A DNA stretch of 64,000 bases, taken from NCBI GenBank assembly GCA_948989975.1, contig CARHSH010000001.1, positions 18,906-82,905 of the forward strand, written 5' to 3'. The position numbers and the translations under genes are program-made. The notes beneath the pieces were generated by a model. The model was not told the origin of the DNA. It was given only the letters and a program-made list of their open reading frames with translations, and did not search any database. This document shows, piece by piece, positions 3,194-22,300 of this stretch (position 1 is its first letter; each line of letters begins with the position of its first letter). This stretch comes from an uncultured Lachnospiraceae bacterium. Its GTDB lineage: Bacteria > Bacillota > Clostridia > Lachnospirales > Lachnospiraceae.

Positions 3194-4609
3194 ATGTATT
3201 TTAGTTCAATGACCTTTTTATGGATCTTTCTTCCGGCGACCTTGCTTTTATATTTGCTTGCGGAACGCTTTCAGAGGATTGCATTGGAAAATTTTGTCCT
3301 GCTGTCTGCAAGCCTTATTTTTTATGCTTGGGGAGAGCCGTTTTATATTTTCCTGTTGCTTTTCTCTGTATTGATGAATTATGTGTTTGGCAGGCTGCTT
3401 GAGGCAGAGCGGCCCCGTTTTAGAAAATGGATCTTAGCTTGCGGCGTTCTTTCAAATCTTGGTTTGCTGGCATTTTTCAAATACTTTAATTTCTTTGCGG
3501 GTTACATCAACCGTTTTTTGGGGCAGGATGCAGTTCCGCTTAGTGAGTTTACGCTGCCGCTTGGAATTTCATTTTATACGTTTCAGGCGATGTCTTATGT
3601 CATTGACGTTTACCGCAAAGAGGTAACGGCGCAGAGAAATTTCTTTTCTCTTTTGTTATATATCTCTCTGTTCCCACAGCTTGTCGCAGGGCCTATTGTG
3701 AAATATAAAGATATTGAGGAGCAAATCAAATACAGGACGAAAACGGATGCGAAACGGGCGTATGGGGTGAAACGGTTTATTTACGGGCTTGGCAAGAAAG
3801 TTTTAATTTCAAATGTGATGGGAAAATATGTGGATATGGTTTTAGCGTTTGAGACAAAACAGTTAAGCACAGGGCTGATGTGGCTGGTTATGATTATGTA
3901 TGCTTTTCAGATTTATTATGATTTTTCCGGTTATTCCGATATGGCAATCGGGCTTGGCTCTATGTTTGGGTTTGACTTTAAGGAGAATTTTCATTATCCG
4001 TATATTTCGAAATCCGTCCGTGAGTTTTGGACAAGGTGGCATATTTCCCTTTCCACTTGGTTTAAGGAGTATGTTTATATTCCCCTTGGCGGCAACCGGA
4101 ATGGGAAATGGAGGACATACCGGAATTTATTTCTCGTATTTCTTTTGACCGGATTTTGGCATGGCGCAGGATTAAATTTTGTGTTCTGGGGCATTTTCCA
4201 TGGGTGTTTTATGGTGTTAGAGCGGATTGGGTTTGGAAAACTGTTGGAAAAGAATCCGTTTAAAATTTTTAATCATATTTATATGGCCGTGACCGTTGTA
4301 TGTATCTGGACGTTTTTCCGCATTGAATCCATGCAGGCGGCAGGGGAATATTTAAAAGGAATGTTTATCTACCAGAGAGGGGAATACAATTTATTTTCCT
4401 GTATCAATTTGGAAATTATTTTGCTTCTTGTGACAGCGTTCCTCTTATGCGGCGTTTTACAGACGGCAGTTCCGAGATTAAAAGAAGCGCTTTATCAAAA
4501 AGAGAAGGTTTCCGCCGTTGAGTCGGTGGGATTGCTTGCAATATTGCTGTTATGCGTTGTTACGCTGTCAAGCAATTCATATAATCCATTTATTTATTTT
4601 CGGTTTTAA
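3194..4609 (+). CDS. MBOAT-family membrane-bound O-acyltransferase (AlgI/DltB/PatA-like)
   Basis: A 471 aa multi-TM protein with MBOAT hallmark regions (…WHISLSTWFKEYVYIPLGGNR… conserved His). Confidence 0.8.
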   Translation: MYFSSMTFLWIFLPATLLLYLLAERFQRIALENFVLLSASLIFYAWGEPFYIFLLLFSVLMNYVFGRLLEAERPRFRKWILACGVLSNLGLLAFFKYFNFFAGYINRFLGQDAVPLSEFTLPLGISFYTFQAMSYVIDVYRKEVTAQRNFFSLLLYISLFPQLVAGPIVKYKDIEEQIKYRTKTDAKRAYGVKRFIYGLGKKVLISNVMGKYVDMVLAFETKQLSTGLMWLVMIMYAFQIYYDFSGYSDMAIGLGSMFGFDFKENFHYPYISKSVREFWTRWHISLSTWFKEYVYIPLGGNRNGKWRTYRNLFLVFLLTGFWHGAGLNFVFWGIFHGCFMVLERIGFGKLLEKNPFKIFNHIYMAVTVVCIWTFFRIESMQAAGEYLKGMFIYQRGEYNLFSCINLEIILLLVTAFLLCGVLQTAVPRLKEALYQKEKVSAVESVGLLAILLLCVVTLSSNSYNPFIYFRF

Positions 4610-4620
4610 AAGGAGTAAGA

Positions 4621-5751
4621 ATGAAAAATAAATATATTTTTTATGTGTTTGTGTTGTTGTTGTCGCTCCCAGTGATTACGTTTCCGTTTATAAAGGGCCA
4701 TATAGATTCCAAAAACCATGAGAAGCGGAAATTTGCGGAGCGTCCGTCGCTTTCATTAGCGACATTGCCAGACTTTCCGGAGCAGTTTGACAACTATTTC
4801 AGCGATCATCTTCCATACAAGAACCAGCTTGTTATGGTAAATGGAATCAAGAATGAGTTGTTAGGTTCAGGCGCGACAGCGATTGAGTATTTGACAAACA
4901 CCAAGGCGATACGCGGGAAAGAGAACTGGCTGTTTTACAATGCGGTCAGTGAAGATGAAGAATCCATGCGGGATTTTCTGTGCAATAATTTATATGAAGA
5001 AAATGAGCTGTCCGAAATTTCAAAGCGCTATGTATTGCTTGAACAAAAGCTAAAGGAAATGGGGATTGAGCTGGTTGTTTTGTATGCCGCAAATAAGGAA
5101 CAAGTATATCCGGAATATATGCCGTCTACGATTGTTCCGATGGGTTCATACAGCAGGACGGATCAGCTTGTGGATTATCTGCATGAACATACTGACGTGC
5201 CCTTGATTTACACAAAAGAAGCCTTGCAGAAAGAAAAAGAGAACCATCAGGTTTTTTACAAATATGACACCCACTGGAATAATCTGGGCGGCTTTGTCGG
5301 ATGCCAGCTTCTCAATGAATATTTCCATGGGGAATATGTTTCTTTAGACGAAGTTTCTTATTCGGCTGTAAAAGACGATGAGAGCGGGGATTTGGCGGAT
5401 TTACTGTCAATGAGGAAAATTTTAAATGACGATATTGTTTGGGAAATAAACAGTTATAAGACAGACGTAAAAGAAGAAACGGTAAGGAATGACGACAACG
5501 CCTTTGAATTTGTGTCAAATGCAGAAGATAAAAGGAAAGTCCTTGTAGTTCAGGATTCGTTTGGATATGCGCTAATGGGGATTACAAAAGACTTTGCAGA
5601 GGTTACGTTTTTAAAGAATACGGAAGTGTTTAAAAAATATTGTGAAGAATGGAAGCCGGACATTTTGCTGGTGGAAATTGTCGAACGGCGTAAAAGGCCA
5701 CAAGAACAGATTTGCCAAGGGCTGTATGATTTATTAGTAAGCGGGGAATAG
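4621..5751 (+). CDS. DHHW-motif protein, the AlgJ/AlgX/PatB-like partner of the MBOAT
   Basis: N-terminal signal/TM segment; KYDTHWN (DHHW family) motif. It lies immediately after the MBOAT gene. Confidence 0.6.
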   Translation: MKNKYIFYVFVLLLSLPVITFPFIKGHIDSKNHEKRKFAERPSLSLATLPDFPEQFDNYFSDHLPYKNQLVMVNGIKNELLGSGATAIEYLTNTKAIRGKENWLFYNAVSEDEESMRDFLCNNLYEENELSEISKRYVLLEQKLKEMGIELVVLYAANKEQVYPEYMPSTIVPMGSYSRTDQLVDYLHEHTDVPLIYTKEALQKEKENHQVFYKYDTHWNNLGGFVGCQLLNEYFHGEYVSLDEVSYSAVKDDESGDLADLLSMRKILNDDIVWEINSYKTDVKEETVRNDDNAFEFVSNAEDKRKVLVVQDSFGYALMGITKDFAEVTFLKNTEVFKKYCEEWKPDILLVEIVERRKRPQEQICQGLYDLLVSGE

Positions 5752-5756
5752 AAACG

Positions 5757-6857
5757 ATGTATACGGAAGCCGGTTTAGTCAGAATTGCAAAACGGGAAAA
5801 TAATCCCAAGAGAAATTATTTAGTTGTCAACCGCCTGCAGGGAAAGCATATCCCTGTTTCTCCAACAAAAGCGTTTGAAATGTTTGACGCCCTTGCCGGA
5901 CAACTAAAGCGGGCGTATCCAAAGGAAACGTTACTCATTATTGGATTTGCTGAAACAGCGACTGCCATTGGCGCGCGGCTGGCAGCGCAGACGGATTCTT
6001 ATTATATGCAGACGACAAGAGAACAGATACCGAATGTGGAGTATATTTATTTTTCGGAAACGCACAGCCATGCAACGGAACAAAAGCTGGTCTGCAATGA
6101 TCTTGAACGGCTGATTGGGAAAATTGACCGGATTGTGTTTGCAGAAGATGAAGTGACGACAGGAAATACGATTCTGCATATGATTCAGAAATTAGAAGAA
6201 CGCTTTCCTTTAAAGACGCGGTTTTCCGTGGCTTCTTTGTTAAATGGCATGGATGCGGAGGCAAGAGAGCGTTATGCGGCAAAAGGGATTGATTTGCATT
6301 TTCTGGTGAAAACAGATCATGCTTCTTATGCCGAAAAAGCAGAGCGTTTCGCGGAGGACGGGACATACGTTTTAGCAAAGGCGGGGAACTTATATGCTTC
6401 AAAGCAGTATGTGGCGGGGAATTATGTCAATGCAAGAAGGCAGACGGCAGGAGCGGAATATACAAAAGCGTGCGAATCGCTTTGGGCGCAGATAAAAGAT
6501 TACATTTGTGAAGCGGCGTCCCAAGACATACTCGCGCTTGGAACGGAAGAATGTATGTATCCGGCGTTGTATGTAGGAGAATGTTTGGAACGGCTTGGGA
6601 ATCGCGTTTCCTGCCATGCGACGACGCGCAGTCCGATTGCGGTGAGCAGTGAGAATGAGTATCCACTGCATACGAGATATGAATTGGAGAGCGTTTACCA
6701 AGATGGCCGCAGAACGTTTCTTTATGATTTGAGACAGTATGACAAGGTCATTCTTGTTACGGATGCGCCGCAAACCCAAACGAAAGGGATCGGGACTTTA
6801 GTGGATGCTCTGGCGCGTTGTGGGAATCGGGAGATTCAGATTATTTGGTGGAGGTGA
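5757..6857 (+). CDS. Phosphoribosyltransferase (PRTase_2/TRSP-like) of the Ter-linked biosynthetic module
   Basis: Canonical PRPP-binding loop IVFAEDEVTTGNTI. Size (366 aa) and context (C-C lyase, HAD, TelA/TerD nearby) match Ter-associated PRTase proteins. Confidence 0.5.
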   Translation: MYTEAGLVRIAKRENNPKRNYLVVNRLQGKHIPVSPTKAFEMFDALAGQLKRAYPKETLLIIGFAETATAIGARLAAQTDSYYMQTTREQIPNVEYIYFSETHSHATEQKLVCNDLERLIGKIDRIVFAEDEVTTGNTILHMIQKLEERFPLKTRFSVASLLNGMDAEARERYAAKGIDLHFLVKTDHASYAEKAERFAEDGTYVLAKAGNLYASKQYVAGNYVNARRQTAGAEYTKACESLWAQIKDYICEAASQDILALGTEECMYPALYVGECLERLGNRVSCHATTRSPIAVSSENEYPLHTRYELESVYQDGRRTFLYDLRQYDKVILVTDAPQTQTKGIGTLVDALARCGNREIQIIWWR

Positions 6858-6860
6858 CGC

Positions 6861-7910
6861 ATGAGAAGTTCGTATCACAAAGACGATGTTTGTCTGCTTT
6901 TAAAAGATATTACGGGATTAGTGCAGCCCCAGCCGACAGATGAGCGGGAAAAACTGATTCAGGCAGGGCGCCATTATTGTGAAATGCTGCCAATCGAATA
7001 TGTGCCGACGGCAGAGTATATGGAAGCGTACCATGCGGCGTTAGAGCATTATGCAAAACCTACGGCGCGGGCAGTCGGGAATCTCGCGGATAAAATTATG
7101 CAGGCAAGGGGAGAAAAGACGGCGCTTGTGTCGTTGGCAAGAGCTGGGATTCCGGCTGGGATTCTTTTAAAATGGTATATTCGTTTTAAATACGGCGTGG
7201 ATTTGCCGCATTATTCAGTTTCCATTATACGGGGTAAAGGAATTGATGACAATGCAATGCAGTATTTGCTGAAACGGCATTTGCCAGAGCAGCTTTTGTT
7301 TGTAGACGGGTGGATTGGCAAGGGCGCGATTTTAAAAGAACTGCAGAAAGACATGGCGGCTTACCGCGGCGTTTCGCCTGAAATTGCCACACTTTCCGAT
7401 CCGGCAAATGTGACAGGGCTGTGTGGGACGCATCGGGATATTTTAATTCCGAGCTCTTGTTTAAATTGTACGGTTTCCGGTCTTATCAGCAGAACATTTT
7501 TGCGGGAAGACGTCATAGGAAAAGCGGATTTCCATGGCGCGGTTTATTATGAGGAATATCGGGATATGGATTTGTCCTATTCGTTTCTACATGCCATTGA
7601 AGCGGAATTTGAGAAGGATTGTAAGACCGATGACTTTTTTGTGGAAGGGTTTGGCTATGAGGAAGCGTGGGAGGTGGCAAGGGAATTTCAGATAGATGAC
7701 ATAAATTTAGTGAAGCCGGGAATTGGGGAAACGACAAGAGTCCTGCTCCGGCGGGCGCCTTTTAAAATCTTATTGGATAAACGGTATCAAAAAGATCCGT
7801 CACTGGCGCACATTTTACGTCTTGCAGAGGAAAAAGGCGTGCCAGTGGAGTTCTATCCGCTGAAGCATTATAAGGCCTGCGGAATCATAAAAAAAATGAC
7901 GGATTTATAG
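6861..7910 (+). CDS. PRTase-fold / StiP-like protein of the Ter-linked module
   Basis: A LLFVDGWIGKGAI segment resembles a degenerate PRPP loop. It is translationally adjacent to the PRTase gene. Confidence 0.35.
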   Translation: MRSSYHKDDVCLLLKDITGLVQPQPTDEREKLIQAGRHYCEMLPIEYVPTAEYMEAYHAALEHYAKPTARAVGNLADKIMQARGEKTALVSLARAGIPAGILLKWYIRFKYGVDLPHYSVSIIRGKGIDDNAMQYLLKRHLPEQLLFVDGWIGKGAILKELQKDMAAYRGVSPEIATLSDPANVTGLCGTHRDILIPSSCLNCTVSGLISRTFLREDVIGKADFHGAVYYEEYRDMDLSYSFLHAIEAEFEKDCKTDDFFVEGFGYEEAWEVAREFQIDDINLVKPGIGETTRVLLRRAPFKILLDKRYQKDPSLAHILRLAEEKGVPVEFYPLKHYKACGIIKKMTDL

Positions 7911-7917
7911 AGGTTCT

Positions 7918-8877
7918 TTATGTAATGCCGTAAGATTCGGCTAAATAGAGGATTTTTCTGGCCCAGTTGGAATGCGTTTTGCATTCGGTCATACGTTCAT
8001 TTTTGGCATTTCCGGATACCATAGAGATGGAAGTGGCGTCCCAATTAAGGATATGTTTTGCATCTGCAATGTCTTCTTTCGAAACGGCGTAGGTTTTGTT
8101 GACAAGCGGGATTTGCTTTGGGTGAATAACCGTTTTGCCAATAAAGCCTGCGCTTCTGTCGTTTTGCAGTTCCTGAAAAAGCCCGCGTTCCCAGTTGTCG
8201 CCATCATAGTATTCCCATACGGGACCGGATATTACATAGTCCATGCCAAATACAGTAATAATGTCAGAAAGGATATTTGCGACAGGGCGTATATCGTAAA
8301 TGGTTTCCGAACTGCGTCTGCGGAAGCCGAAAGCATGGCATAAATCGTTGCCGCCGACGCGGATATTTAACACAAGATCTTCAATGGCGCTTAATTTGTC
8401 TTTTATGCCATAAAGGAGTTTGTGGCGGGTTCTTAGGTCAATCAGGGACGGGCTTTCCATAATAGGCATAATATAGAAAGTCTGTGTCTGGGACTGGTTG
8501 AGCTGAACTATGGCTTTAATATAGCTGTCGGCGTTTGTCAGGTCAAATTTTGGGAGGATAAATCCGGTAAGTATGGATTTCGCTTCGTTTAACTGGCTGG
8601 CAAGACGGAGCGCTTGACCAGAGTTTCGAATGCGGATAAATATTTTTGGCAGATAAAAAGGTTTGGTTTTTAGGGCGGAATAAATTTGCCGAAGGGAGTT
8701 TAGGAGTATGGCTTCGGCTTCCGGCACGAATTGGTCGTTAATGGTGTCCTCTAAACACAGCGCCAGGGAAAATTGGCTGCCAAACCGCTGGCTTATGACA
8801 GATTCGGCAATGGATGTGTTGTTTGCCGGACAATATAGGAGAGCGCCGATACTGTAAGGCATTTGAGTGGTTTTCAT
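7918..8877 (-). CDS. HpcH/HpaI-CitE-like TIM-barrel C-C lyase (Ter-module lyase)
   Basis: 319 aa. The N-terminal segment SIGALLYCPANN resembles the CitE substrate motif. RBS AAAGGAGC. It is convergent with the PRTase genes and divergent from the protease operon. Confidence 0.45.
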   Translation of the reverse strand: MKTTQMPYSIGALLYCPANNTSIAESVISQRFGSQFSLALCLEDTINDQFVPEAEAILLNSLRQIYSALKTKPFYLPKIFIRIRNSGQALRLASQLNEAKSILTGFILPKFDLTNADSYIKAIVQLNQSQTQTFYIMPIMESPSLIDLRTRHKLLYGIKDKLSAIEDLVLNIRVGGNDLCHAFGFRRRSSETIYDIRPVANILSDIITVFGMDYVISGPVWEYYDGDNWERGLFQELQNDRSAGFIGKTVIHPKQIPLVNKTYAVSKEDIADAKHILNWDATSISMVSGNAKNERMTECKTHSNWARKILYLAESYGIT

Positions 8878-9040
8878 GTCAGGCTCCTTTTCTTATTTTC
8901 TAGCTTTTAGAATGATTTTTTGTTTGGCATAATAGCGTTTTTTTGAAATGGGTTGTTGTGGTTAAAATGCGTTTAGATTAGGATTGTTTTTATAGTTTTA
9001 TTGTATTTTTGTTGTATTTTTTCATGTTATTTTTTGTAAG

Positions 9041-9137
9041 TATTGCAATTTTGTAAGCATGGCGGCTTTTCGTGTATTGCAGTTTTGCAAGTATTGCAAT
9101 TTTGTATGTATGGCGATTTTGCGTGTATGGCAAGGGG
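9041..9137. repeat. About 6 tandem imperfect 17-nt direct repeats (consensus TATTGCAATTTTGYAWG) in the divergent intergenic region
   Basis: Read directly: tattgcaattttgtaag / catggcggcttttcgtg / tattgcagttttgcaag / tattgcaattttgtatg / tatggcgattttgcgtg / tatggcaagggg. Confidence 0.6.
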
Positions 9138-9308: not shown

Positions 9309-10979
9309 ATGGACGGAATTATGCGGTTTCGGCATAATGTAATGAATATAGATTCTTTTGCTGCCTTTGAAAGTATTCGGGGCGGGGTGAATCAAGATTG
9401 CAGAGATGTTTATTTTGTCCGGTTTGTTGGGGTAAATGAGAAGATTCAATCTGATATACAGAAGATGGACGCTGATTTGCAGGAGCAGATGAGGCAGGGG
9501 CAGATCGGCTATCGGAGGACTGCCCATTTGCCGGGGATTGATTCTGGGGAGTCAGTGAAGCGTTATGTGGAACGGTATTTTGCTTGGGTGGAATCTGGGA
9601 GAATAAGTATATCCTCTGATGTTTTATCCGGTGACAAGGAGTATGAACGGGCGCTTGGCAACGCAGTTTTGAAAGTGACGGAGGTTTATTTTTCTGGGAA
9701 GCAGATGACGGAATCTATGGAAAAAAATTTTGTCGTGAAACTTTTGTTTTGGCATGATTTTTTGATGAATGGCGTTGCGCTGAATTGGAATGAAAGGGTG
9801 TCCGTTAAACTGGTTTTGGCGAATATTGTGAAAAGACAAGAGTATTTGTTTTGTTATCTGCTCACGTTGTTGGGATATGATGTGCTTTTACTGCAATGCG
9901 AAGCGGATATTTCAGCAGAAGATGCGAAGCTGGGGTATTCCCGAAAAATTGAGCTGGGGAATTTTGGGCGGATAGATTTTAAAGCTATGGAAACGGGAAA
10001 CAAGGCGGTTCCAGAATCTATAGCAACCGCAAAACTGGAATCAGCGGCAGAATCCGCAGCGGCAAGACCCGTTACGGTAACGAAGCCCGTAACAGCGGCG
10101 AAACCTGTGATGGCAACAAAGCCCGTAACGACGGCGAAACCTGTGACGGCAACAAAGCCCGTAACAGCGGCAAAACCCGTTACGGTGACGAAGCCCGTAA
10201 CGACGGCGAAACCTGTGACGGCAACAAAACCGGTAACGGCAGTAAATCCTGTGAAGGCAACGAAGCCTACAACAGCGGCGAAACCTGTGACGGCAACAAA
10301 ACCTGTATCGGCAGTAAAACCAGAGAGGGTGACGAAGCCTATAACGGCAACAAAACCAGTAACAGCGGTGAAACCTGTAATGGCAACGAAATCCGCAGGG
10401 AGCCGTGTGGAAAAAAGTTTCGAGGAGCTTGCGCTTCTTGCATCATCGGTTGTGCTGATTGCAATTCACGGCCATAATGGCGATGTGATAGGGACGGGTT
10501 CCGGTATTATGGTTGGGGCAAATGGGTATATTTTGACGAATTGCCATGTGGCAAGCGGCGGAAAATATTATTCAGTCCGGATAGAGGAAGATGAGACAGT
10601 TTACACGACAGATGAGTTAATAAAATACAATTCCGTATTGGATCTGGCAGTTCTTCGGATTGACAGGCGCTTAGAGCCGCTTACGCTTTACAGAGGGAAA
10701 CAAAAACTTGTCAGAGGGCAGAAAGTTGTGGCGATTGGAAGCCCGTTAGGGCTGTTTAATTCGGTGTCGGACGGAATTGTATCGGGATTCCGGCGGATAG
10801 ATGATGTGGATATGATTCAGTTTACGGCTCCGACTTCTCATGGAAGTTCGGGCGGAGCGGTGTTAAATATGTTTGGCGAAGTGATTGGGATTAGCACAGC
10901 GGGATTTGACAATGCGCAGAATATCAATCTTGCAGTTGGCTATGAAAGCATTAAGCCGTTTATCAGAGGGTTTACATAA
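9309..10979 (+). CDS. Three-part protein: a YceG-N-like N-terminal domain, a (KPVTxx)n tandem-repeat linker, and a C-terminal trypsin-like (S1, HtrA-like) serine protease domain
   Basis: Catalytic His (TNCHVASGG), Asp (DLAVLRID) and Ser (GSSGGAVLN) are present. The ATG at 9309 follows GGGGG; the track start at 9273 is probably too far upstream. Confidence 0.6.
   Translation: MDGIMRFRHNVMNIDSFAAFESIRGGVNQDCRDVYFVRFVGVNEKIQSDIQKMDADLQEQMRQGQIGYRRTAHLPGIDSGESVKRYVERYFAWVESGRISISSDVLSGDKEYERALGNAVLKVTEVYFSGKQMTESMEKNFVVKLLFWHDFLMNGVALNWNERVSVKLVLANIVKRQEYLFCYLLTLLGYDVLLLQCEADISAEDAKLGYSRKIELGNFGRIDFKAMETGNKAVPESIATAKLESAAESAAARPVTVTKPVTAAKPVMATKPVTTAKPVTATKPVTAAKPVTVTKPVTTAKPVTATKPVTAVNPVKATKPTTAAKPVTATKPVSAVKPERVTKPITATKPVTAVKPVMATKSAGSRVEKSFEELALLASSVVLIAIHGHNGDVIGTGSGIMVGANGYILTNCHVASGGKYYSVRIEEDETVYTTDELIKYNSVLDLAVLRIDRRLEPLTLYRGKQKLVRGQKVVAIGSPLGLFNSVSDGIVSGFRRIDDVDMIQFTAPTSHGSSGGAVLNMFGEVIGISTAGFDNAQNINLAVGYESIKPFIRGFT
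10063..10390 (+). repeat. In-frame 36-nt (12-aa KPVTAAKPVTAT) tandem repeat, about 9 copies, inside the protease gene
   Basis: Near-identical nucleotide units aagcccgtaacagcggcgaaacctgtgacggcaaca repeated in tandem. Confidence 0.7.
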
Positions 10980-11005
10980 AGTTTTCAAAGGGATAATGGG
11001 AATCT

Positions 11006-13279
11006 ATGTTTGAACATAAAATAATTCAGGATTTAGATGAATATTTTTTGAAACAGAGCGGCCGAAAAGAGACCGGCGTGTACTTTTACCGGATCAATGG
11101 GTATAGTGAGCGGATTTGTGGTTTTGTACAGAAATATTTTGATGCGGCGCGGGTTTGCGGCGTTGTGATTGAAGGGAAAATTCCAAATCCCGATGAGCGC
11201 CAGCTTGCGTATTATTCGGAAATAATGGGAGAAACGTTTCGGTTGAGTGTCGGATTTATCCGGCAGTCGCTTGCGAAATGGCTTCCGCGAATGAACGGGA
11301 ATCAGCAGGAGAATGTGGCTGTTTCTATCTATGACACGCTAAATGACATGCGCCGCATGGGCAAAAATGACAATATCCTGAAAAACACGTATATTAAGTT
11401 TATGTGCTGGCTTTATTATAAGTTTGAACGGATTGTAAATTGTTTAGGCGCAGAACAACTGCCTAAGATTTTATATGAAGGGGAAGTCAGCAATTATGAA
11501 TTAAAGCTGCTCTGCGTTTTGTCAAAAGCGGGATGTGACATTGTTCTGCTTCAATATCATGGCGATTTGGCGTATTTAAAACTTGATCCGAAGTCGGAAA
11601 CTTCTATGGAATGGACGCAGGAAGGGCTGACAGCGTTTCCGGAATGGTTTCATTTAAAGTGGATTCAGCAGGAATCGCAGAGAGAGCGGGAGAGAGAACG
11701 TCTCTACGGGGGCGCGCCGGAGTTTCTAAACGCAACGAATGTCTGGATTCAGGGAACAGGGCTTACCGACATAAAAACAGGAATCTCAGCAAGAGGAGAC
11801 GATCCAAAGCTGTTTTATAACTGTTTTATCCGCATTTGCGGCGTGGAGGATAAGCTAACGTATATGAATGAACTGTATCAATTTCAGCTTGAATTTAAAG
11901 CGGGCAAACGAAATCTTTTGGTATTGGACGGGCAGATTCCAAAGCCTTCTATGGAAGAAATTGCCGGAATCCGCAGAGGGAATTATAGCAGTTTTGATTC
12001 GATGCTGGCAGATTTATCTTCAGGCATCCAGTATAGCGCAAACCTTTCCTTGCAGAAGCTTATGCGGAAAGCTTTTTTAGACGTTATGTTTGAGGCGCAA
12101 AAACTGCCGGATATGAATGTCAACAAACTGACAAATAAAGCGGTGTATCTGCTTTGCTGGCTGAAACGCTATCAGGGTAAACTGTTTTCTAATTGGAAGT
12201 TCCCCCAAATTGGATGCGTGATTTTCTTCAATGCGTGCAAAAATGAAAATGAAGCGTTGTTTCTAAAAATGCTTGCAAGGCTTCCGGCAGATGTGCTTTT
12301 ACTTAGTCCGGATCAAAATGAGCGCTGTATCGTCAAAGATAAATTATTATATGAAATCCAATATGGAGAGTCGATGTCTGTAAAGGATTTTCCGGCGGAA
12401 GAATCGCAAATCCGTATGTCGACGGCGGCATATCAGGCGGAACGGGAGCTTGACTCGCTGATGTATGAGGATTCCGGATTGTACCGGAACAGGCAGTATG
12501 AGAAGGCGAATGCAGTTTCTTTAAAAACGACATATGAAGAAATTGCAATACTTTGGAATGAGGAATTGCAGTATCGGCCAAACTTTAGTACAATAGATGC
12601 AGCAGTGAATGCGCCTGTGTTGTTTGCGAAAGTATCCGGCGTAAAAGACGGGCAAAAACAGCAGTATTGGGCGGATATAAAGGAATTGATTACAAAAGAC
12701 GCCATTGTGGTAAAACAGGTTCCTTATATTCGCAGGGAAGATGAAAACCCCATAAAACCTTATGCAACGGAATTTTTAAAGAATGGAAAAGCGCAAAAGG
12801 CGAAGATAAAGGCGCATAAGGCATACCGTTACAGTTTTTTGCGGGAAGAAATCCAAGACTATATTTTGGATAAACTTCAGCTTTTGCTTGACCAGCGGAT
12901 TATAAAAGGGACATATGAGAATGGTACAGAGTATACGATTGTGTCTGCCGTATTAAATCTGAAACAGGAAATTATCCGTTTACTGCAAAATTTCGATTTT
13001 ACCAAAAAAAATCCGAAATTGATTTATATTCATACTTCAGAGGCGGCGCCTTCGTTGGAAGATGCGGTGATGGCGGCTTTTTTGAATCTGGCGGGCTTCG
13101 ACGTTTTGGTTTTTACGCCGACCGGATACCAGAGCATAGAAAATTTTTACACGCGTGAGATTTTAGAGGAACATCAGATCGGGGAATATATGTATGATTT
13201 AAGCGTTCCAAATTTCGACAGGCTTTCATTTGGCGCGCCCCTGTCATGGTACGAAAAAATTTTTAAGAGAGGAAGATAA
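11006..13279 (+). CDS. Large TelA-associated protein (YceG-like), with internally repeated D[IV][VL]LL modules
   Basis: 757 aa. Its N-terminal ~200 aa align with the N-terminal domain of the upstream protease (GVYFYRINGYSE / DVYFVRFVGVNE; CDIVLLQYHG / YDVLLLQCEA). It lies immediately upstream of telA, as yceG does in Bacillus. Confidence 0.35.
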   Translation: MFEHKIIQDLDEYFLKQSGRKETGVYFYRINGYSERICGFVQKYFDAARVCGVVIEGKIPNPDERQLAYYSEIMGETFRLSVGFIRQSLAKWLPRMNGNQQENVAVSIYDTLNDMRRMGKNDNILKNTYIKFMCWLYYKFERIVNCLGAEQLPKILYEGEVSNYELKLLCVLSKAGCDIVLLQYHGDLAYLKLDPKSETSMEWTQEGLTAFPEWFHLKWIQQESQRERERERLYGGAPEFLNATNVWIQGTGLTDIKTGISARGDDPKLFYNCFIRICGVEDKLTYMNELYQFQLEFKAGKRNLLVLDGQIPKPSMEEIAGIRRGNYSSFDSMLADLSSGIQYSANLSLQKLMRKAFLDVMFEAQKLPDMNVNKLTNKAVYLLCWLKRYQGKLFSNWKFPQIGCVIFFNACKNENEALFLKMLARLPADVLLLSPDQNERCIVKDKLLYEIQYGESMSVKDFPAEESQIRMSTAAYQAERELDSLMYEDSGLYRNRQYEKANAVSLKTTYEEIAILWNEELQYRPNFSTIDAAVNAPVLFAKVSGVKDGQKQQYWADIKELITKDAIVVKQVPYIRREDENPIKPYATEFLKNGKAQKAKIKAHKAYRYSFLREEIQDYILDKLQLLLDQRIIKGTYENGTEYTIVSAVLNLKQEIIRLLQNFDFTKKNPKLIYIHTSEAAPSLEDAVMAAFLNLAGFDVLVFTPTGYQSIENFYTREILEEHQIGEYMYDLSVPNFDRLSFGAPLSWYEKIFKRGR

Positions 13280-13281
13280 CT

Positions 13282-14424
13282 ATGGGCCTAGATTTTAGTA
13301 AAACGGCAGTACAGCAGCAGGCAACGGCTCCTGAGGCTAAAAATGAACTTCAAATTGCAGAAACTTATGACATCGTTTCAGACAGACAGCAGATGAATGA
13401 CGAACTAGTCAATTCCGCAGAGGTGGATGCGCTGGTCAGTACGATTGAGGTGAATAATTTAGAAACAATCGTGTCATTTGGCGCGGAAGCGGCAGAAGAA
13501 ATTTCAAAAGCGTCGGACGTAGTCTTAAACAGTATGAATATGTCGCAGATTGACGATACAAGCGTTATGCTGACGACGCTTTCAAAAATAATGTCGAAGT
13601 TTGACATCGAGGAAATACAGGAAAATCCGGGGCTGTTTGGCAAGTTATTTGGGAATATGCGCAAGCAGTTGGATAAAATCCTTGCGAAATACCATACGAT
13701 GGGCGAGGAAGTGGACAAAATTTATGTGCAGTTGAAACAGTATGAATCGGAAATCAAACAGTCAAACAGAAAATTAGACCAGATGTTTACGGCAAATGTA
13801 AATTATTATCATGAACTTGTCAAATATATACTGGCAGGCGAGCAAGGCTGTCGGGAATTGGAAGATTATATTGCGCAGCGGAGGACAGATATGGAGGCTA
13901 GCGGCGATATGTCGATCCAGTTTGAAATCCAGAGTTTGGAACAGGCGCTTATGATGCTAGAACAGCGGACGCAGGACTTACGGACGGCGGAAAGCGTGGC
14001 AATGCAGTCAGTGCCGATGATAAAGACAATGGCATTTTCCAATATGAATCTCGTACGGAAAATCAACTCTGCGTTTATCGTGACGCTTCCGGTCTTTAAA
14101 CAGGCTCTGGCTCAGGCGATTATGTTAAAACGCCAGAGGATTCAGGCGGAAGCCATGTCTGCATTAGATGAAAAAACAAATGAGATGTTAGTGAAAAATG
14201 CCAGAAATACAGTAGAACAGTCGAAAATGACGGCGCGTCTTGCATCCGGCAGTTCCATTAAAATTGAAACATTAGAGACAACTTGGAGAACGATTGTAAA
14301 CGGTATTGATGAAACAAGGCAGATTCAGGAAACGGCGAGAAAACAGCGCGTAGAGGATCAGGCAAGGCTTCAAAATATCAAAGATGAGTTCAACAGGATG
14401 TATCATATGCCCAAAAAACAATAA
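13282..14424 (+). CDS. telA: TelA/KlaA-family toxic-anion-resistance protein
   Basis: A 380 aa coiled-coil-rich protein typical of TelA (YceH-like). The gap to the upstream gene is 3 nt. Confidence 0.7.
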   Translation: MGLDFSKTAVQQQATAPEAKNELQIAETYDIVSDRQQMNDELVNSAEVDALVSTIEVNNLETIVSFGAEAAEEISKASDVVLNSMNMSQIDDTSVMLTTLSKIMSKFDIEEIQENPGLFGKLFGNMRKQLDKILAKYHTMGEEVDKIYVQLKQYESEIKQSNRKLDQMFTANVNYYHELVKYILAGEQGCRELEDYIAQRRTDMEASGDMSIQFEIQSLEQALMMLEQRTQDLRTAESVAMQSVPMIKTMAFSNMNLVRKINSAFIVTLPVFKQALAQAIMLKRQRIQAEAMSALDEKTNEMLVKNARNTVEQSKMTARLASGSSIKIETLETTWRTIVNGIDETRQIQETARKQRVEDQARLQNIKDEFNRMYHMPKKQ

Positions 14425-14449: not shown

Positions 14450-15031
14450 ATGCCAATTAATTTATCAAAAGGACAAAAGGTTGATTTAACAAAAGGAAAT
14501 CCGGGACTAAAGAAAATTATGGTGGGTCTTGGCTGGGACGTAAACCAGTTTGATTCCGGCGCGGATTTTGACTTGGATGCGGCCGCATTTATGCTGGCAG
14601 GCGCCGGAAAATGCCCGACGGAAAAAGAATTTATCTTTTATGGAAATTTAGAGCATGGCAGCGGATCCGTATTGCATATGGGCGACAACTTAACGGGAGA
14701 GGGGGAAGGCGACGATGAGCAAATCGAAGTCGACTTATCGAAAGTTCCGGCAAATATCGAACGGATCGCATTTACGGTAACGATTTATGATTCCGATGCG
14801 CGCAGGCAGAATTTCGGGCAGGTGTCTAATTCCTTTATCCGAATCGTAGATGAATCGACCGGCGCAGAATTAATCCGTTATGATTTAGGCGAAGATTTTT
14901 CTGTAGAGACAGCCGTAGTCGTTGGGGAACTCTACCGTCACAATGGAGAATGGAAATTCAATGCCATCGGAAGCGGTTTTCAGGGAGGACTTGCGGCGTT
15001 GTGCGGCCATTATGGAATCGAAGTGGCATAA
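14450..15031 (+). CDS. terD: TerD-family stress protein (Ca2+-binding)
   Basis: [15 protein letters not shown] calcium-binding motif; 193 aa. Confidence 0.8.
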
Positions 15032-15043
15032 GGAGGGTGGAAT

Positions 15044-15634
15044 ATGTCAATTAGTTTACAGAAAGGCCAGAAAGTCAGTTTGACGAAAGAAAACGCAGGG
15101 CTTTCTTCTGTGTTAATCGGACTGGGATGGGACGAAGCAAAACGAATGCGCGGCGGTTTTTTTTCGCCGAAGCCACAGCCGATTGACTGTGATGCATCCG
15201 CGCTTTTGCTAAGGGGCGGAAGGCTGATAGAACAGGCGGATATTGTGTATTTTGGAAATCTTTCGCATAAGACGGGCACAGTCCGCCATATGGGGGATAA
15301 TTTAACGGGCGCGGGGGAAGGCGACGATGAACAGATTATCGTAGACTTAGACCAGCTTCCGGCGGAATATGATAGAATTGTCATCGTTGTCAATATCTAT
15401 GAAGCAAACCAGCGTAACCAGCATTTTGGAATGATAGAAAACGCGTTTATCCGTCTGGTAGATGGAAAAACAAATCAGGAAATGTGCAAATACAATCTGT
15501 CTGAGAATTATACTGGTATGACGGCGATGATTTTTGGTGAAGTCTACCGCCATAATGGAGAGTGGAAATTCAACGCCATCGGACAGGCGACAAACGATCC
15601 GGGGTTAAGCTCTCTTGTCAACCGATACAGGTAA
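15044..15634 (+). CDS. terD: TerD-family stress protein, second paralogue
   Basis: [15 protein letters not shown] motif; 196 aa; RBS AAGGAGGG. Confidence 0.8.
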   Translation: MSISLQKGQKVSLTKENAGLSSVLIGLGWDEAKRMRGGFFSPKPQPIDCDASALLLRGGRLIEQADIVYFGNLSHKTGTVRHMGDNLTGAGEGDDEQIIVDLDQLPAEYDRIVIVVNIYEANQRNQHFGMIENAFIRLVDGKTNQEMCKYNLSENYTGMTAMIFGEVYRHNGEWKFNAIGQATNDPGLSSLVNRYR

Positions 15635-15703: not shown

Positions 15704-18364
15704 ATGAAATATCAGGGACTTACAGAAAAGGAAGTGGAAGCTTCCAGAAGGCAGCATGGTTCGAATGAAATTCCAGATTCTGAACCGACGACGTTTTGGG
15801 AGGAATTTAAAGAAACATTTGGCGATCCGATGATAAAAATATTGCTTGCAATCGCGGCATTGATGATCGTTATGTTTTTCTTTGGGTATGCAGAAATCTA
15901 TGAACCGCTCGGGACGATAATTGCTGTTTTAATTGTTGCGTTTGTATCTGCAAAAACAGGCGTGGCAAGCGACACGAAATACCGTGAATTAAAAGACAGC
16001 GCGAAAAAAGACCAATGTAAGGTGTACCGTAACGGCATAGTGACAGTGATTGACGTAGATGACGTTGTTGTAGGAGATAAAGCGCTCTTACAGTCCGGCG
16101 ATAAAATACCCGCTGACGGAATCTTGGTGTCGGGCTCCCTTGCCGTGGATAATTCTGCGCTAAACGGGGAAGCGGAAGAATGTAAAAAAACAGAAGCGCC
16201 GGAACAGACAGAGCTTGCAGATGACATAACCGGAGATACTTTTGTAGACAGGCATTCCCTGTTCCGCGGCGCGGTTGTGTTTGACGGAGAAGGGGTTTTA
16301 GACGTCCGCAAAGTCGGCTTAAAGACAATGATGGGCAAAATGGCGGAAGAAATGCAGGAAGATGAGCCGGATTCCCCGTTAAAAGTCAAACTGGCAAAAC
16401 TGGCAAAACAAATTTCTACATTTGGCTATATTGGCGCGATCGTTATAGCCGTATTATATTTTGCGTATTTTATTATATCCGCAGGCGGCGTGTCTGATTA
16501 CTTTGCCAGCGGCGCAGAGCAGATTATCAAAGATCTCGTAGAAGCCGTGTCGCTTGCAGTCGTTATTATCGTCTGCGCTGTTCCGGAAGGCCTGCCGCTT
16601 ATGATTTCCTTAGTGCTTATGCAAAATACAAGCAAAATGTTAGATCACAACGTGCTGGTCCGTAAAGCGGAAGGAATTGAAACTGCGGGCTCCCTGAATA
16701 TTTTATTTAGTGACAAAACGGGAACAATTACGAAAGGAATGCTGGAAGTTGTGGATTTCTTTACGGCGGACGGCAATTCCATAGAAATACCGGACTTAAG
16801 CAAACACAGCGGAGTAAAAGGCCTTCTTGACCTTGCCATCGGCAAAAATACGCAGTCTATGTTTGACGGCGAGCATAGAGTGATAGGCGGAAACGCTACG
16901 GATCAGGCTCTCATGAAATTTATCGGTGAATCTACCTTCCGGGCGCTTGAGGCGGACAAAGAATGTAAGGTAACGAAATCGCAGAGTTTTAATTCCGCCA
17001 ATAAATTCAGTCAGGCAAGGATTGACAGCGTCGGAAAAACATTCTATAAAGGCGCGCCGGAACGGCTGCTTGCAATGGCGGGCAAATATTTAGACGGAAA
17101 CGGTGACGTGAAAACGCTAGACAAAGCCGCGCTGGACAAAAAAATCGACGCTCTTGCCGCAAAGGCTATGCGTGTTTTAGCTTTTGGCTATTCCGAGAAA
17201 GATCTCGTGGAGAACAAAATTAATGATGATGTCGTAATTATTGGTTTAGTTGGAATCCGCGATGACGTAAGGCCGGAAGCGCGTGAAGCGATAGAAGAAG
17301 TGCAAAAGGCGGGAATCCAAGTTGTAATGATAACTGGAGACCGTTTGGAAACGGCGGTTGCCATCGCAAAAGATGCGGGTCTTTTGCAGAATGATTCAGA
17401 TATTGCGCTGTCTTCTTCACAGCTCAACGAAAAGTCTGACGACGAACTGAAAAAAATTATACCGAATATCCGCGTCATTGCAAGGGCGCTTCCAACGGAT
17501 AAATCCCGTATGGTGCGTTTATGTCAGGAAATGAATCTTGTCGTAGGCATGACTGGGGACGGCGTCAACGACTCTCCCGCCCTAAAACGCGCAGACGTAG
17601 GCTTTGCAATGGGAAGCGGCACAGAAGCGGCAAAAGAAGCTGGGAAAATTGTAATATTAGATGACAATTTTAAATCCATTAAAGATGCAATCTGGTATGG
17701 CAGGACGATATACCACAATATCCTAAAGTTTTGTAAATTCCAGCTTGTCATAAATGTAGCGGCTGTCGTAGTCAGCGCAATCGCGCCGTTTTTCGGCGTA
17801 GAGGAGCCGTTAAAAGTCACCCATCTTCTGTTTGTCAATCTGGTAATGGACGGCTTGGGCGCAATTATGCTTGGCAACGAGCCGGCTCTGAAAAAATATA
17901 TGGGCGAAAAACCCAGAAGAAGGGACGAGAGCATTGTCAGCAAGAAAATGATGGCCCAGATCATTGTCATGGGCGCCTGGCTTACTTTTATCAGTTTTCT
18001 ATACTTAAAGCATCCATTTTTCAGAGGTTTATTTGATACAGAAAAACAGCATTTGACAGGTTACTTTGTTCTGTTTATTGTTAGCGCTTTGTTTAACGGA
18101 TTTAATGTTAGAGATGACAGCTTTGCTATTTTCAAAGGATTAAGCGAGAATACTGGTTTCTTAAAAGTGTTTTTTATCATTATACTTGTGCAGGCGGTCA
18201 TCGTCAATGCGGCGCTAGTCCCGTTTACGGCGTTTACATGGATTGGAAATATGTTTAGCTGTGTGCCGTTTGGGCTTACCGGCTGGGTGGCAGTGATACT
18301 TCTGGCAGTTACCATGATTCCCGTTGACCTAATCCGAAAAGCGCTGATAGGAAAAGGAAATTAA
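15704..18364 (+). CDS. P2-type cation-transporting ATPase (Ca2+-ATPase-like)
   Basis: DKTGTIT phosphorylation motif, TGDRLETA, GDGVNDSPALKRADVGFAMG hinge, 886 aa, PMCA/YloB-like N-terminus. Confidence 0.85.
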   Translation: MKYQGLTEKEVEASRRQHGSNEIPDSEPTTFWEEFKETFGDPMIKILLAIAALMIVMFFFGYAEIYEPLGTIIAVLIVAFVSAKTGVASDTKYRELKDSAKKDQCKVYRNGIVTVIDVDDVVVGDKALLQSGDKIPADGILVSGSLAVDNSALNGEAEECKKTEAPEQTELADDITGDTFVDRHSLFRGAVVFDGEGVLDVRKVGLKTMMGKMAEEMQEDEPDSPLKVKLAKLAKQISTFGYIGAIVIAVLYFAYFIISAGGVSDYFASGAEQIIKDLVEAVSLAVVIIVCAVPEGLPLMISLVLMQNTSKMLDHNVLVRKAEGIETAGSLNILFSDKTGTITKGMLEVVDFFTADGNSIEIPDLSKHSGVKGLLDLAIGKNTQSMFDGEHRVIGGNATDQALMKFIGESTFRALEADKECKVTKSQSFNSANKFSQARIDSVGKTFYKGAPERLLAMAGKYLDGNGDVKTLDKAALDKKIDALAAKAMRVLAFGYSEKDLVENKINDDVVIIGLVGIRDDVRPEAREAIEEVQKAGIQVVMITGDRLETAVAIAKDAGLLQNDSDIALSSSQLNEKSDDELKKIIPNIRVIARALPTDKSRMVRLCQEMNLVVGMTGDGVNDSPALKRADVGFAMGSGTEAAKEAGKIVILDDNFKSIKDAIWYGRTIYHNILKFCKFQLVINVAAVVVSAIAPFFGVEEPLKVTHLLFVNLVMDGLGAIMLGNEPALKKYMGEKPRRRDESIVSKKMMAQIIVMGAWLTFISFLYLKHPFFRGLFDTEKQHLTGYFVLFIVSALFNGFNVRDDSFAIFKGLSENTGFLKVFFIIILVQAVIVNAALVPFTAFTWIGNMFSCVPFGLTGWVAVILLAVTMIPVDLIRKALIGKGN

Positions 18365-18365
18365 T

Positions 18366-19121
18366 ATGATACGGTTCCATGCAGATTTAGACAATACGAT
18401 ACTGTATTCCTATAAACACGAAATTGGCGAAACTAAAAATTGCGTAGAAGTCTATCAGGGAAGGCAGATATCCTATATGACGCATGAGACTGCCCGGCTT
18501 CTAAGTGGGTTAAAAGAAAAAATGTCTATCGTCCCGACTACGACAAGGACGGTAGAACAGTACAAACGGCTGGATCTTTCCGTTATTTCCCCAAAATATG
18601 CGCTGGTATGCAATGGCGGGGCGCTGCTTGTGGACGGAGAAGAAGATATGGATTGGTATAAAGAGTCGCTTGCGCTGATTTCGGACAGTAGGGAAATGTT
18701 AAAATATGGAGAATGGCTTTTAGGGCAGGATGAAAACCGCTGTTTTGAGGTCAGGAATATCAAAGGGCTTTTCATTTTTACAAAAAGTGAAAAGCCCTTC
18801 ACTTCGGTAATGCGGTTAAAAGAGCGTTTGGACGAAAGCCTGACTGATATATTCAGTAACGGCGCGAAAGTATACATAGTGCCGAAACGGCTGAATAAAG
18901 GAATGGCGGTTTCACGGTTCCAAAAACGGTATCCTTCCGATTTAGTCATCGCGGCGGGAGACAGTGAATTTGACATACCGATGTTAAATGAAGCCCGTCT
19001 TGCAGTCGCGCCGCGCGCATTAAAAGGCGGGAAAGGAATAAAAGGCCATATTACATATATGAGAGGGAAGAAACTATTTTCTGAAGAAGGATTAGAGTAT
19101 ATAACTAATATAATAATGTAG
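18366..19121 (+). CDS. HAD-superfamily phosphatase (Ter-module HAD)
   Basis: N-terminal HADLDNTIL (DxDxT) motif; 251 aa; 1-nt gap from the ATPase gene. Confidence 0.6.
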   Translation: MIRFHADLDNTILYSYKHEIGETKNCVEVYQGRQISYMTHETARLLSGLKEKMSIVPTTTRTVEQYKRLDLSVISPKYALVCNGGALLVDGEEDMDWYKESLALISDSREMLKYGEWLLGQDENRCFEVRNIKGLFIFTKSEKPFTSVMRLKERLDESLTDIFSNGAKVYIVPKRLNKGMAVSRFQKRYPSDLVIAAGDSEFDIPMLNEARLAVAPRALKGGKGIKGHITYMRGKKLFSEEGLEYITNIIM

Positions 19122-19393: not shown

Positions 19394-22300
19394 ATGCAGG
19401 TGAAATTTATTTCAAAAGCCCTTTCGGCGGTTTTGTCGGCAGCTATGCTGGTGACGTCTCTGCCGACAGCGGCGTTAGCGGTTCAGGCAGATGAGCCGGA
19501 AGCGGCGACAGCTCAGAAGCCAAATTTGTTAAAACTTTGGTATGATGAGCCGGCCAGCCAAGGGAAAAATATTCTCAGCTCTGGAGCTTATCAGACTTCA
19601 GCAGAGGACAATAACTGGCAGCAGCACACGCTTCCAATCGGCAACAGCTATATGGGGGCAAATGTCTATGGCGAGATAGCAAGAGAAAGGCTGACCTTTA
19701 ACCAGAAAACGATGTGGAACGGTGGACCAAGCTCGAAAAGGCCAAATTATAACGGCGGTAATAAAGATGGCATGGTGGAGCGTTACCAAAACATTGTGAA
19801 TAACTTTCTGGCAGGCAATGATGCGACGGCAAGCGAACAATGCGGAGGGCTGACAGGGGAAGGCGAGGCGCAAGGATATGGCGTTTATCAGTCATGGGGC
19901 GATTTGTATCTTGATTACAAAGATTTGGCAAATGTGACGGAAACGGAAGACTATGAACGTAATCTGGATTTAACGACAGGGATTGCAAACGTTGATTTTG
20001 TGGCTGCAAATACGGAATACCATAGAGAGTATTTTGTCAGCTATCCAGACAATGTCTTAGCGATGAAACTGACTACGGGAAAAGAAGCGGGCATGAATTT
20101 GAATGTCAGCTTCCCAATAGATAATGGCGAAAATGAATCTGAGCAAACCAGCATCATTAACGGGCAGTTAGGAAAAGAAAATTTACAGTATACAGTAGAT
20201 GCGGCGGAAGGAACGATTGTGAATGCGGGTAATATGCAGGACAACCAGCTTAAATTTAATTCTGTCCTAAAAGTGGTGACGGATAAAGGCGCGATGGCAA
20301 AAGGAGCTGACAATTCGTCACTGGATATTACAGGGGCAAAGGAAGTGGTGATTTTCCTGTCCGCGAATACGGATTATAAAAATGTATATCCGAAGTACCG
20401 TACCGGAGAAACGGCAGAGCAGCTTGCGTCAAGAGTGAAGAAAGCTGTGGATAATGCGGCAGGAAAAGGCTATGAAAGGGTAAAAACCAGATATTTAGCG
20501 GATTATCAGGCGTTATTTGGCAGAGTGGATTTAGACCTTGGCCAGGGAGCTTCTGAAAAGACGACGGACGACCTTTTGGCGGCGTATAAAGCTTCCGGTA
20601 AGGACGCTGCGACAGAACAGGAAAGACGTTTATTGGAAACCCTGCTTTACCAATATGGAAGATATTTGACGATAGCATCCTCAAGAGATGGAGATTTGCC
20701 CTCTAATTTGCAGGGCGTATGGAATAACAGGGTAGGAACCGGCAGCCATGTTCCATGGGGCAGTGATTTCCATATGAATGTAAACCTTCAGATGAATTAT
20801 TGGCCGACCTATTCTGCTAACTTGGCAGAATGCGCGACGCCGATTATTGATTATGTTAATTCATTAAGAGAGCCGGGGCGTGTGACGGCAGAGAAATATT
20901 TTGGGATTGCAAGCGAACCGGGCGAGGCAAATGGATTCAGCGCGCATACGCAGAATACGCCGTTTGGCTGGACATGTCCGGGCTGGGCTTTTAGCTGGGG
21001 ATGGTCTCCGGGAGCGGTTCCGTGGATAATCCAAAATTGTTGGGAGTACTATGAGTATACGGGCGATTTAGAGTATATGAGAACACACCTTTACCCGATG
21101 ATGAAGGAAGAGACGATCCTGTATGATAAGATTTTAATTGACAGCGGCAAAGAGATTACGCTTGCAGATGGAACCAAAAGCACCCGTCTTGTAACGGCTC
21201 CTACTTATTCTTCAGAGCATGGTCCGTATACGATGGGCAATACATATGAAAACAGTCTGGCATGGCAGTTATATGACGATACGATTACGGCTGCAAAATT
21301 GTTGGGCGTTGATTCAGATCTTGTAACGCGTTGGGAAAAGACAAGAGAGAGGCTTGTGCCTGTTGAAATTGGGGACAGCGGGCAGATTAAAGAATGGTAC
21401 ATTGAAGGGGAATACGGCAAGACGGAATCGGGTGAGAATATCAGCTCATTTGAGAGAGGCCACCGCCATATGTCCCATATGTTAGGGCTGTTCCCGGGAG
21501 ATTTGATTTCGGTAGAAGATACAGATCTGTTGAATGCGGCAGTCGTGTCTTTAGAGGATCGCGGATATACCAGCACAGGCTGGGGAATGGGTCAGCGCAT
21601 TAACGCATGGGCAAGAACGGGAAACGGCAATACGGCGTACCGTTTGATTCAGAATTTGTTTAAAGGCGGGATATACCCAAATCTCTGGGACGCCCATCCG
21701 CCATTCCAGATTGACGGGAACTTTGGTTACACTTCAGGCGTCAATGAAATGCTGATGCAGAGCAATATGGGATATATCAATATTTTACCGGCGCTTCCGG
21801 AGGTATGGGAGAACGGTTCTGTAAATGGAATCTTAGCAAGGGGGAATTTTGAAATTGGCATCGATTGGACGAATGGGACGGCAGATGAAATTCGGATCTT
21901 GTCGAAGAATGGCGGGGAATGCGCGGTACAGTATCCGGGCATTGCTACAGCGGTAATTAAAAATTCTTCAGGCAGTGTGGTTGCCTCTAATGTGGTATCT
22001 GGAAAAGAAAACAGAATTACATTTAATACAACAAAAGGAGAGGCATATACGATTCAAAGTATGTCGGCGGCTCCGGAAAACTGTAAGGCAGTGGCGGCTG
22101 AGACGGGCGTAACGCTTACATGGGACGCCGTGGAAGGAGCAACTTCTTATAATGTGTATAGTAAGGTCAGGGCGATTGAAACAAAAATCGGCGCAGTTTC
22201 GTCGGCTTCGTATACAGATACGAAAAAGTATGAAGATGTGTACGCAGTGGAATATTCTGTTGCCGCGGTGAAAGACGGCAAAGAGGGAAGGCGTTCGAAT

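Follow-up and report, generated by a model that had tools for sequence, protein, structure and literature searches.

HtrA-type proteases form oligomers built on trimers and are typically gated allosterically, and outer membrane protein peptides activate DegS via its PDZ domain. Gene clusters that encode Ter proteins, TelA and YceG are widespread and have been associated with several kinds of stress (tellurite, oxidative, envelope and phage). To our knowledge, YceG has neither an assigned activity nor a solved structure, and we know of no ligand for the YceG_bac domain (PF14266). A nucleoside-like signal, the ligand binders TerB and TerD and sub-membrane structures of TelA are believed to act together in Ter systems (PMC7824862), and a role for yceGH in the tolerance of Bacillus anthracis to tellurite and H2O2 is cited in PMC11994780. 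We analysed a 64,000-nt stretch of DNA from an uncultured Lachnospiraceae bacterium (GCA_948989975.1, contig CARHSH010000001.1, positions 18,906-82,905 of the forward strand), referred to here as the window; coordinates are positions within it unless a locus label is given. A plus-strand gene at 9309..10979 encodes a protein of 556 residues in which a diverged YceG_bac domain is joined by a repetitive linker to an HtrA-like serine protease domain, next to genes encoding YceG and TelA. Throughout, 'YceG-like' refers to PF14266, the family of Bacillus YceG, to which E. coli YceG (MltG) is unrelated.

The open reading frame (ORF) of this gene is intact and has AGGGGG as a ribosome-binding site ahead of its ATG at 9309, and its product matches both PF14266 and PF13365. 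The product has three parts: the N-terminal YceG_bac domain (residues ~4-230; 9309..9998, +), recognised by Pfam, profile comparison and AlphaFold2 (AF2) modelling, a disordered linker (residues 231-363; 9999..10397, +) and an HtrA/DegS-type (S1C) protease domain that lacks a PDZ domain (10398..10976, +). We are highly confident that this three-part architecture, and the homology of the N-terminal domain (N-domain) to the repeats of YceG, are real. Gene calls on 120 public contigs include the exact protein, under the name 'serine protease Do' or 'trypsin-like serine protease [Eubacterium sp.]'. Public databases already annotate both domains automatically and give the protein only a generic name. 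In the searchable full-text literature, outside which the main 2012 comparative study of Ter systems falls, we found no paper that pairs YceG with a trypsin-like protease, nor any account of the fusion or of how it is tied to Ter clusters.

The adjacent gene (11006..13279, +) encodes a 757-residue YceG with three YceG_bac domains, delimited by Pfam scans of the whole protein and of fragments and by AF2 (repeat 1, 11006-11740; repeat 2, 11741-12505; repeat 3, 12506-13276; all +), which score 47.9, 207 and 199 bits, respectively, and correspond to the three D[IV][VL]LL modules that had been noticed in this protein. In the protease, Pfam matches PF14266 to residues 33-201 with 29.2 bits (E=8.7e-7), or 32.0 bits when the N-terminal 250 residues are scanned alone, in both cases above the gathering score of 25. 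Pairwise BLASTP of the N-terminal 240 residues against the adjacent YceG gave high-scoring segment pairs with repeat 1 (E=0.024) and repeat 2 (E=0.017), both of which narrowly fail the preset limit of 0.01. The segments aligned in the original prediction are genuine and form the pair with repeat 1; as the BLASTP values are marginal, however, we dropped pairwise BLAST as a basis for homology and used profile methods instead.

Using hhalign on profiles of 54 N-domains and 40 YceG sequences drawn from genomes, the N-domain aligned with repeat 1 at a probability of 93.7% (E=1.8e-7, 171 columns) and with repeat 2 at 94.6% (E=7e-8, 163 columns); for scale, repeats 1 and 2 align with each other at 93.5% (E=2.2e-7, 177 columns). 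The match to repeat 3 was of low probability and covered only 36 columns (E=0.009). Control profiles scored far lower than the real ones (54-57), with a maximum of 25.9 (E≥0.0056) for 25 column-shuffled profiles and 13.8 for reversed profiles, and full-length alignments of the protease and YceG also matched at repeat 1 (E=2.2e-5). Hence the similarity to the N-terminal domain of the neighbouring protein, as originally proposed, stands for repeat 1, but it is equally strong for repeat 2 and is not specific to the N-terminus.

The AF2 model of the N-domain (pLDDT, the predicted local distance difference test score, ~90) contains a beta-alpha-beta unit, an insert of three to four helices and a second beta-alpha-beta unit that closes on the QEYLFCYLLTLLGYDVLLLQ motif, in which D-V-L-L-L forms a strand. 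All three YceG repeats show the same order of elements when the AlphaFold models are compared by order, without superposition. The motifs VYFxR, NFxxKxxxW and QEYLF...DVLLLQ are common to the N-domain and to repeats 1 and 2. A similarity arising by chance or from composition, as the BLASTP values above 0.01 might suggest, would be extremely improbable and was ruled out by the hhalign E-values and the shuffled and reversed controls: the Pfam gathering score is passed, the profile E-values are near 1e-7 against 0.0056 for the best shuffled profile, about 170 columns align collinearly and the predicted order of secondary structure is identical. Taken together, the Pfam score, the profile comparison and the matching element order indicate that the homology is real, and they agree with the initial description of a serine protease carrying an N-terminal domain homologous to the neighbouring YceG.

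The C-terminal domain matches Trypsin_2 (PF13365) at residues 397-528 (E=9e-26), and a phmmer search of PDB sequences returned the anti-sigma-I factor RsgI9 (E=5e-22), followed by HtrA1/2 and DegS (1e-16 to 1e-18). The predicted catalytic triad, His413 (10545-10547), Asp445 (10641-10643) and Ser514 (10848-10850; all +), is invariant in 87 family members, as is much of the domain, which therefore appears to be a conserved S1C protease that is predicted to be active. No PDZ domain was matched in Pfam or NCBIfam, and the chain ends five residues past the last helix of the protease domain. Neither a signal peptide nor a hydrophobic stretch of transmembrane length was found in a crude test rather than with a dedicated predictor, the maximum Kyte-Doolittle value over 19 residues (1.6) lying inside the folded beta-alpha-beta core. 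A cytoplasmic location is predicted for the protease, and the same is expected of YceG and TelA. Full-length models score well below their cut-offs in NCBIfam, with 103 bits for TIGR02037 (cut-off 416) and 72-99 bits for the DegS and HtrA equivalog models (cut-offs 408-470). In combination with the intact triad and the lack of a PDZ domain and a signal peptide, these low scores suggest an enzyme that is HtrA-like in its mode of action but lies outside the canonical HtrA family.

The protein thus shares with HtrA, DegP and DegS (S1C proteases such as E. coli DegS and plant Deg1) a chymotrypsin-fold domain with a His-Asp-Ser triad, but differs from them in having no PDZ domain, signal peptide or membrane anchor, in falling far below the cut-offs of their full-length NCBIfam models and in carrying its accessory domain, a YceG_bac domain, at the N-terminus, with a disordered repeat linker of 130 residues in between. 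This single diverged YceG_bac domain is the only other folded module of the protease. With Bacillus YceG (PF14266; yceGH of B. subtilis and B. anthracis, beside TelA/YceH) it has in common the domain family and the Ter cluster setting, whereas its one copy is strongly diverged, scoring 29-32 bits where YceG repeats 2 and 3 reach ~200, and is fused to a protease, in place of three to four tandem copies. The S1C domain of RsgI9 is extracellular and is thought to be non-catalytic. In this anti-sigma factor of Clostridium thermocellum (PDB 7sjy) the domain is paired with NTF2, while in the window protease the triad is intact and invariant and there is no transmembrane segment. On sequence grounds, the fusion is best regarded as a variant of the HtrA-type protease with a pathway-specific domain and not as a categorically new system, a copy of the YceG domain occupying the place where a PDZ domain usually stands and being joined to the protease by a flexible linker expanded through repeats.

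To what extent is the fusion conserved? When each GTDB species was represented by one genome, the full architecture was identified in 53 loci, all of them intact ORFs and nearly all from Lachnospiraceae, with 35-50% identity between N-domains across species. A profile search returned at least 120 clusters at 90% identity above 677 bits, almost all of which were already annotated with PF13365 and PF14266. When the N-domain alone was searched exhaustively with HMMER against 1.84 billion representatives, 225 clusters at 50% identity were obtained (135 with E≤1e-10); a word-indexed homologue search with the N-domain, which gave only 14 matches, badly understates the family. Among the best 150 of the 225 clusters, the domain almost always lies within the first ~40 residues and most proteins are 440-630 residues long, the remainder being shorter sequences; Trypsin_2 was present in ten out of ten distant representatives scanned. 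No YceG protein of 750 residues occurs among these best 150 clusters, which marks the N-domain as a distinct subfamily of YceG_bac, essentially confined to the fusion architecture. Conservation of the fusion across genomes, raised as a question when the gene was first noticed, is evident from both the 53 species loci and the 225 clusters.

The linker (residues 231-363) has a pLDDT below 50 in AF2 and is predicted to be disordered. Tandem Repeats Finder (TRF) detects arrays at 10057-10391 with DNA periods of 18, 36 and 108 nt, and counting of the units gives 18 tandem KPVTAx hexapeptides (10065..10388, +), equivalent to nine dodecamers, as had been estimated. In the 53 orthologues the linker is of low complexity and ranges from 44 to 192 residues, with unrelated tandem repeats having expanded independently in different lineages. 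The number of units also varies among close relatives, from 5 to 18 units. One protein (P0135) with flanks 100% identical to those of the window protein has 14 units rather than 18. The fragment P0010 is likewise down to 14 units, but through a deletion that differs from that of P0135. In a sister lineage, the protease domain of which is 99.5% identical, there are 17, 11, 6 or 5 units. Among relatives whose flanks are identical or almost identical, counts of 5, 6, 11, 14, 17 or 18-19 units are thus seen, and the 90%-identity cluster of the window protein spans 484-556 residues. All of these differences are in frame and the 18-unit allele is present on 120 contigs; part of the variation could stem from the collapse of repeats in short-read assemblies. 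That the repeat number of the linker differs between closely related gut strains is a further point of interest.

We also observed a linker motif, h-x-h-R-[IVR]-P-[ED]-R-D-R-R-T-x-E-x-L (core PERDRRT), in about one-third of the family (for example L018, L032, L012, L014, P0158 and P0175, with the consensus V-x-V-R-[IV]-P-E-R-D-R-R-T-x-E-M-L). It could represent a docking, pseudo-substrate or autocleavage site. The window protein retains only 'VKPERVTKP' of this motif (about nt 10314-10340) and, as the motif is missing from it, we did not use PERDRRT in considering the mechanism.

The genes that surround the protease gene place it in a Ter cluster. The gap between the protease and YceG genes is 26 nt (10980-11005) and has no predicted terminator-like site, which makes co-transcription of the two genes likely, and the gene for TelA, a toxic anion resistance protein (13282..14424, +; PF05816, E=1e-101), starts 2 nt past the YceG stop codon. 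It is followed by ORFs for two TerD paralogues (14450-15031 and 15044-15634, both +), assigned by synteny and through their orthologues in L001, which carry PF02342, by a P-type Ca2+-ATPase-like pump (15704-18364, +), assigned by synteny and the Pfam families seen in L001, L058 and L060, and by a HAD phosphatase (18366-19121, +), identified by a HAD Pfam match and by synteny in the same three loci; the pump and the phosphatase are conserved members of the cluster. Upstream lies the so-called 'biosynthetic module', consisting of genes with the Pfam families PRTase_2+TRSP (5757-6857, +), StiP+PELOTA_1 (6861-7910, +) and C-C_Bond_Lyase (7918-8877, -), and most loci keep this module in the same upstream position. 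The window therefore contains the Ter-cluster gene set of TelA, TerD, YceG, PRTase_2/TRSP, StiP, C-C lyase and HAD.

Across species, the protease gene adjoins Ter-cluster genes in 47 of the 53 loci, several of which are shortened by contig ends. A YceG gene was detected in 40 of these 47, in two cases in divergent orientation, and all but the truncated ones among the 40 run on into TelA-TerD. The usual order is PRT-StiP-lyase (minus strand)-protease-(rhomboid)-YceG-TelA-TerD (two to four copies)-CaATPase, with which L001, L058 and L060 agree. The gene in parentheses encodes a rhomboid intramembrane protease of ~200 residues (PF01694) and is situated between the protease and YceG genes in 23 of the 40 loci (examples among L010-L057 include L013:9458-10045; see also L058:6397-6987 and L060:6401-6985), the subclade of the window being without it. 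Many Ter clusters of this type thus carry two proteases side by side. The earlier suggestion of a candidate regulatory protease of the TelA system is supported, by gene neighbourhood only, as regards the Ter/TelA link; its regulatory part, and the possible binding of a common partner or ligand by the shared domain, belong with the proposals that follow.

The role that we propose for the N-domain, like all of our functional statements, is inferred from the architecture and the neighbourhood of the gene. In the explanation that we prefer, the protein would be a cytoplasmic, PDZ-less protease of the HtrA type that is dedicated to the Ter module and docked to it via its YceG-like domain, to which we assign a probability of about 0.35-0.45. 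The YceG-like domain would then be a recognition or gating module, the counterpart of PDZ in DegS and DegP, and would dock the enzyme onto the YceG/TelA assembly through contacts between YceG domains. The linker, rich in Lys, Pro, Thr and Ala, would set the reach of the tethered protease, which may process or remove a component of the assembly (YceG, TelA or TerD), and this cleavage would switch the stress response on or off. A number of observations weigh against this. An otherwise identical Ter cluster (L059) has no protease between the lyase and YceG genes, and in six of the 53 genomes (L018, L028, L032, L033, L045 and L050) the protease gene is unlinked to Ter genes and sits among housekeeping genes, such as those for RF-1, Dus, BirA and FeoB. 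The absence in L059 and the six unlinked copies show that the protease is an accessory, movable component of the cluster. One lineage carries a frameshifted copy (L001:11100-11180, and also L002-L004) that is split into ORFs of 384 and 83 residues by an additional G in a G-run (between LVRG and QKVV), just ahead of the part that bears the catalytic serine; the split is found in four to five independent assemblies, with four samples among their sources, and reflects either a real pseudogene, a slippage site or a recurrent homopolymer error. Moreover, the predicted template modelling score (pTM) of the AF2 model is 0.54, giving no confident placement of the N-domain relative to the protease domain, and the present data do not separate partner docking from ligand sensing.

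The main rival to docking is a ligand-gated protease, in which the N-domain and YceG would share a small-molecule ligand, such as the nucleoside-like compound that the PRTase/StiP/lyase/HAD module is proposed to make, and its binding to the N-domain would activate the enzyme allosterically, as in DegS. The position of the gene between the 'biosynthetic module' and YceG-TelA, the motifs shared by the N-domain with repeats 1 and 2 and the allosteric control that is typical of HtrA proteases are all consistent with this. On the other hand, neither a Walker A motif nor any other nucleotide motif is present in the N-domain, matches of the YceG_bac domain to the AAA+/P-loop NTPase fold are weak, and the shared motifs lie in predicted strands and helices, where they may be structural rather than form a pocket; we consider ligand gating unlikely. 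Docking and ligand gating are not mutually exclusive. In a further reading, the YceG-like domain would take the place of PDZ in a switch of the DegS type and serve as a sensor specific to this system, reading the ligand-bound or oligomeric state of YceG-TelA, and the protease would cleave a Ter component and thereby start or end the response. This last possibility is speculative and, to our minds, somewhat doubtful.

Less likely than docking or ligand gating are two further explanations. The protein may be a general cytoplasmic quality-control protease, with the N-domain serving oligomerisation or stability and the position in Ter clusters being an accident that followed domain duplication. 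The same cluster without the protease in L059, the six unlinked genes, the frameshifted lineage and the generic public annotation would all be expected in this case, yet the N-domain subfamily is essentially confined to the fusion architecture and adjacency to YceG has been kept in the large majority of species despite N-domain identities of only 35-50%, and we judge a housekeeping role to be quite unlikely. An effector of a conflict or abortive-infection response, released onto targets in the cell once the Ter module senses phage or xenobiotics, is more improbable still. Its attraction is that the trypsin-like protease domain resembles that of the PADLOC RT-Protease_XI profile (E=1.4e-15), which describes defence reverse transcriptases of UG/Abi class XI. 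However, the match is limited to profile positions 326-505, a generic protease domain, the window protein has no reverse-transcriptase domain and no other protein of the cluster matches PADLOC, so that we rejected assignment to a PADLOC defence system. Nor does the locus resemble a variable defence island, since it lies on the chromosome, keeps its synteny and is found widely within a single family.

A protease that bears a YceG domain offers an experimental handle on the function of YceG and TelA, and it clearly illustrates how, in a protease of the HtrA type, PDZ has been exchanged for a pathway-specific domain. Should the YceG-like domain prove to be a sensor, the protease would provide the first defined signalling step in Ter/TelA systems for stress and phage resistance, and in more than half of the related clusters it would act jointly with the adjacent rhomboid protease.

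Further observations concern the YceG protein itself, for which the AF2 model has a pLDDT of 81.8 and more than 4000 homologues are available. Neither BLASTP nor hhalign detects similarity between repeats 2 and 3, although each of them scores ~200 bits with PF14266, which suggests that this model mixes two domain subtypes. The number of domains is also variable, since a relative of 1022 residues (P0016) contains four YceG_bac stretches.

The divergent intergenic region of 430 bp between the lyase and protease genes contains six tandem 17-bp units (consensus TTTTGCAAGTATTGCAA) at 9032-9133, which could be binding sites for a regulator. The array was not found upstream of the orthologues in 53 other genomes and, without conservation in orthologous loci, we did not count it as part of the system. 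No regulatory RNA was matched by Rfam in this region or elsewhere in the window.

Directly upstream of the Ter cluster are genes for an MBOAT O-acyltransferase (3194-4609) and an AlgX-like SGNH protein (4621-5751). These are probably not members of the system, because the AlgX-like gene occurs in only one of the 53 loci (L023). Beyond the HAD phosphatase gene, an ORF of 2577 codons (19394-27127) encodes a giant glycosidase of the cell surface, of a kind that is typical of gut Lachnospiraceae. It combines a GH95 (fucosidase-type) catalytic domain with Big_2, F5/8-type-C, FIVAR, Listeria-Bacteroides repeat and BspA-LRR domains and has no connection with the protease.

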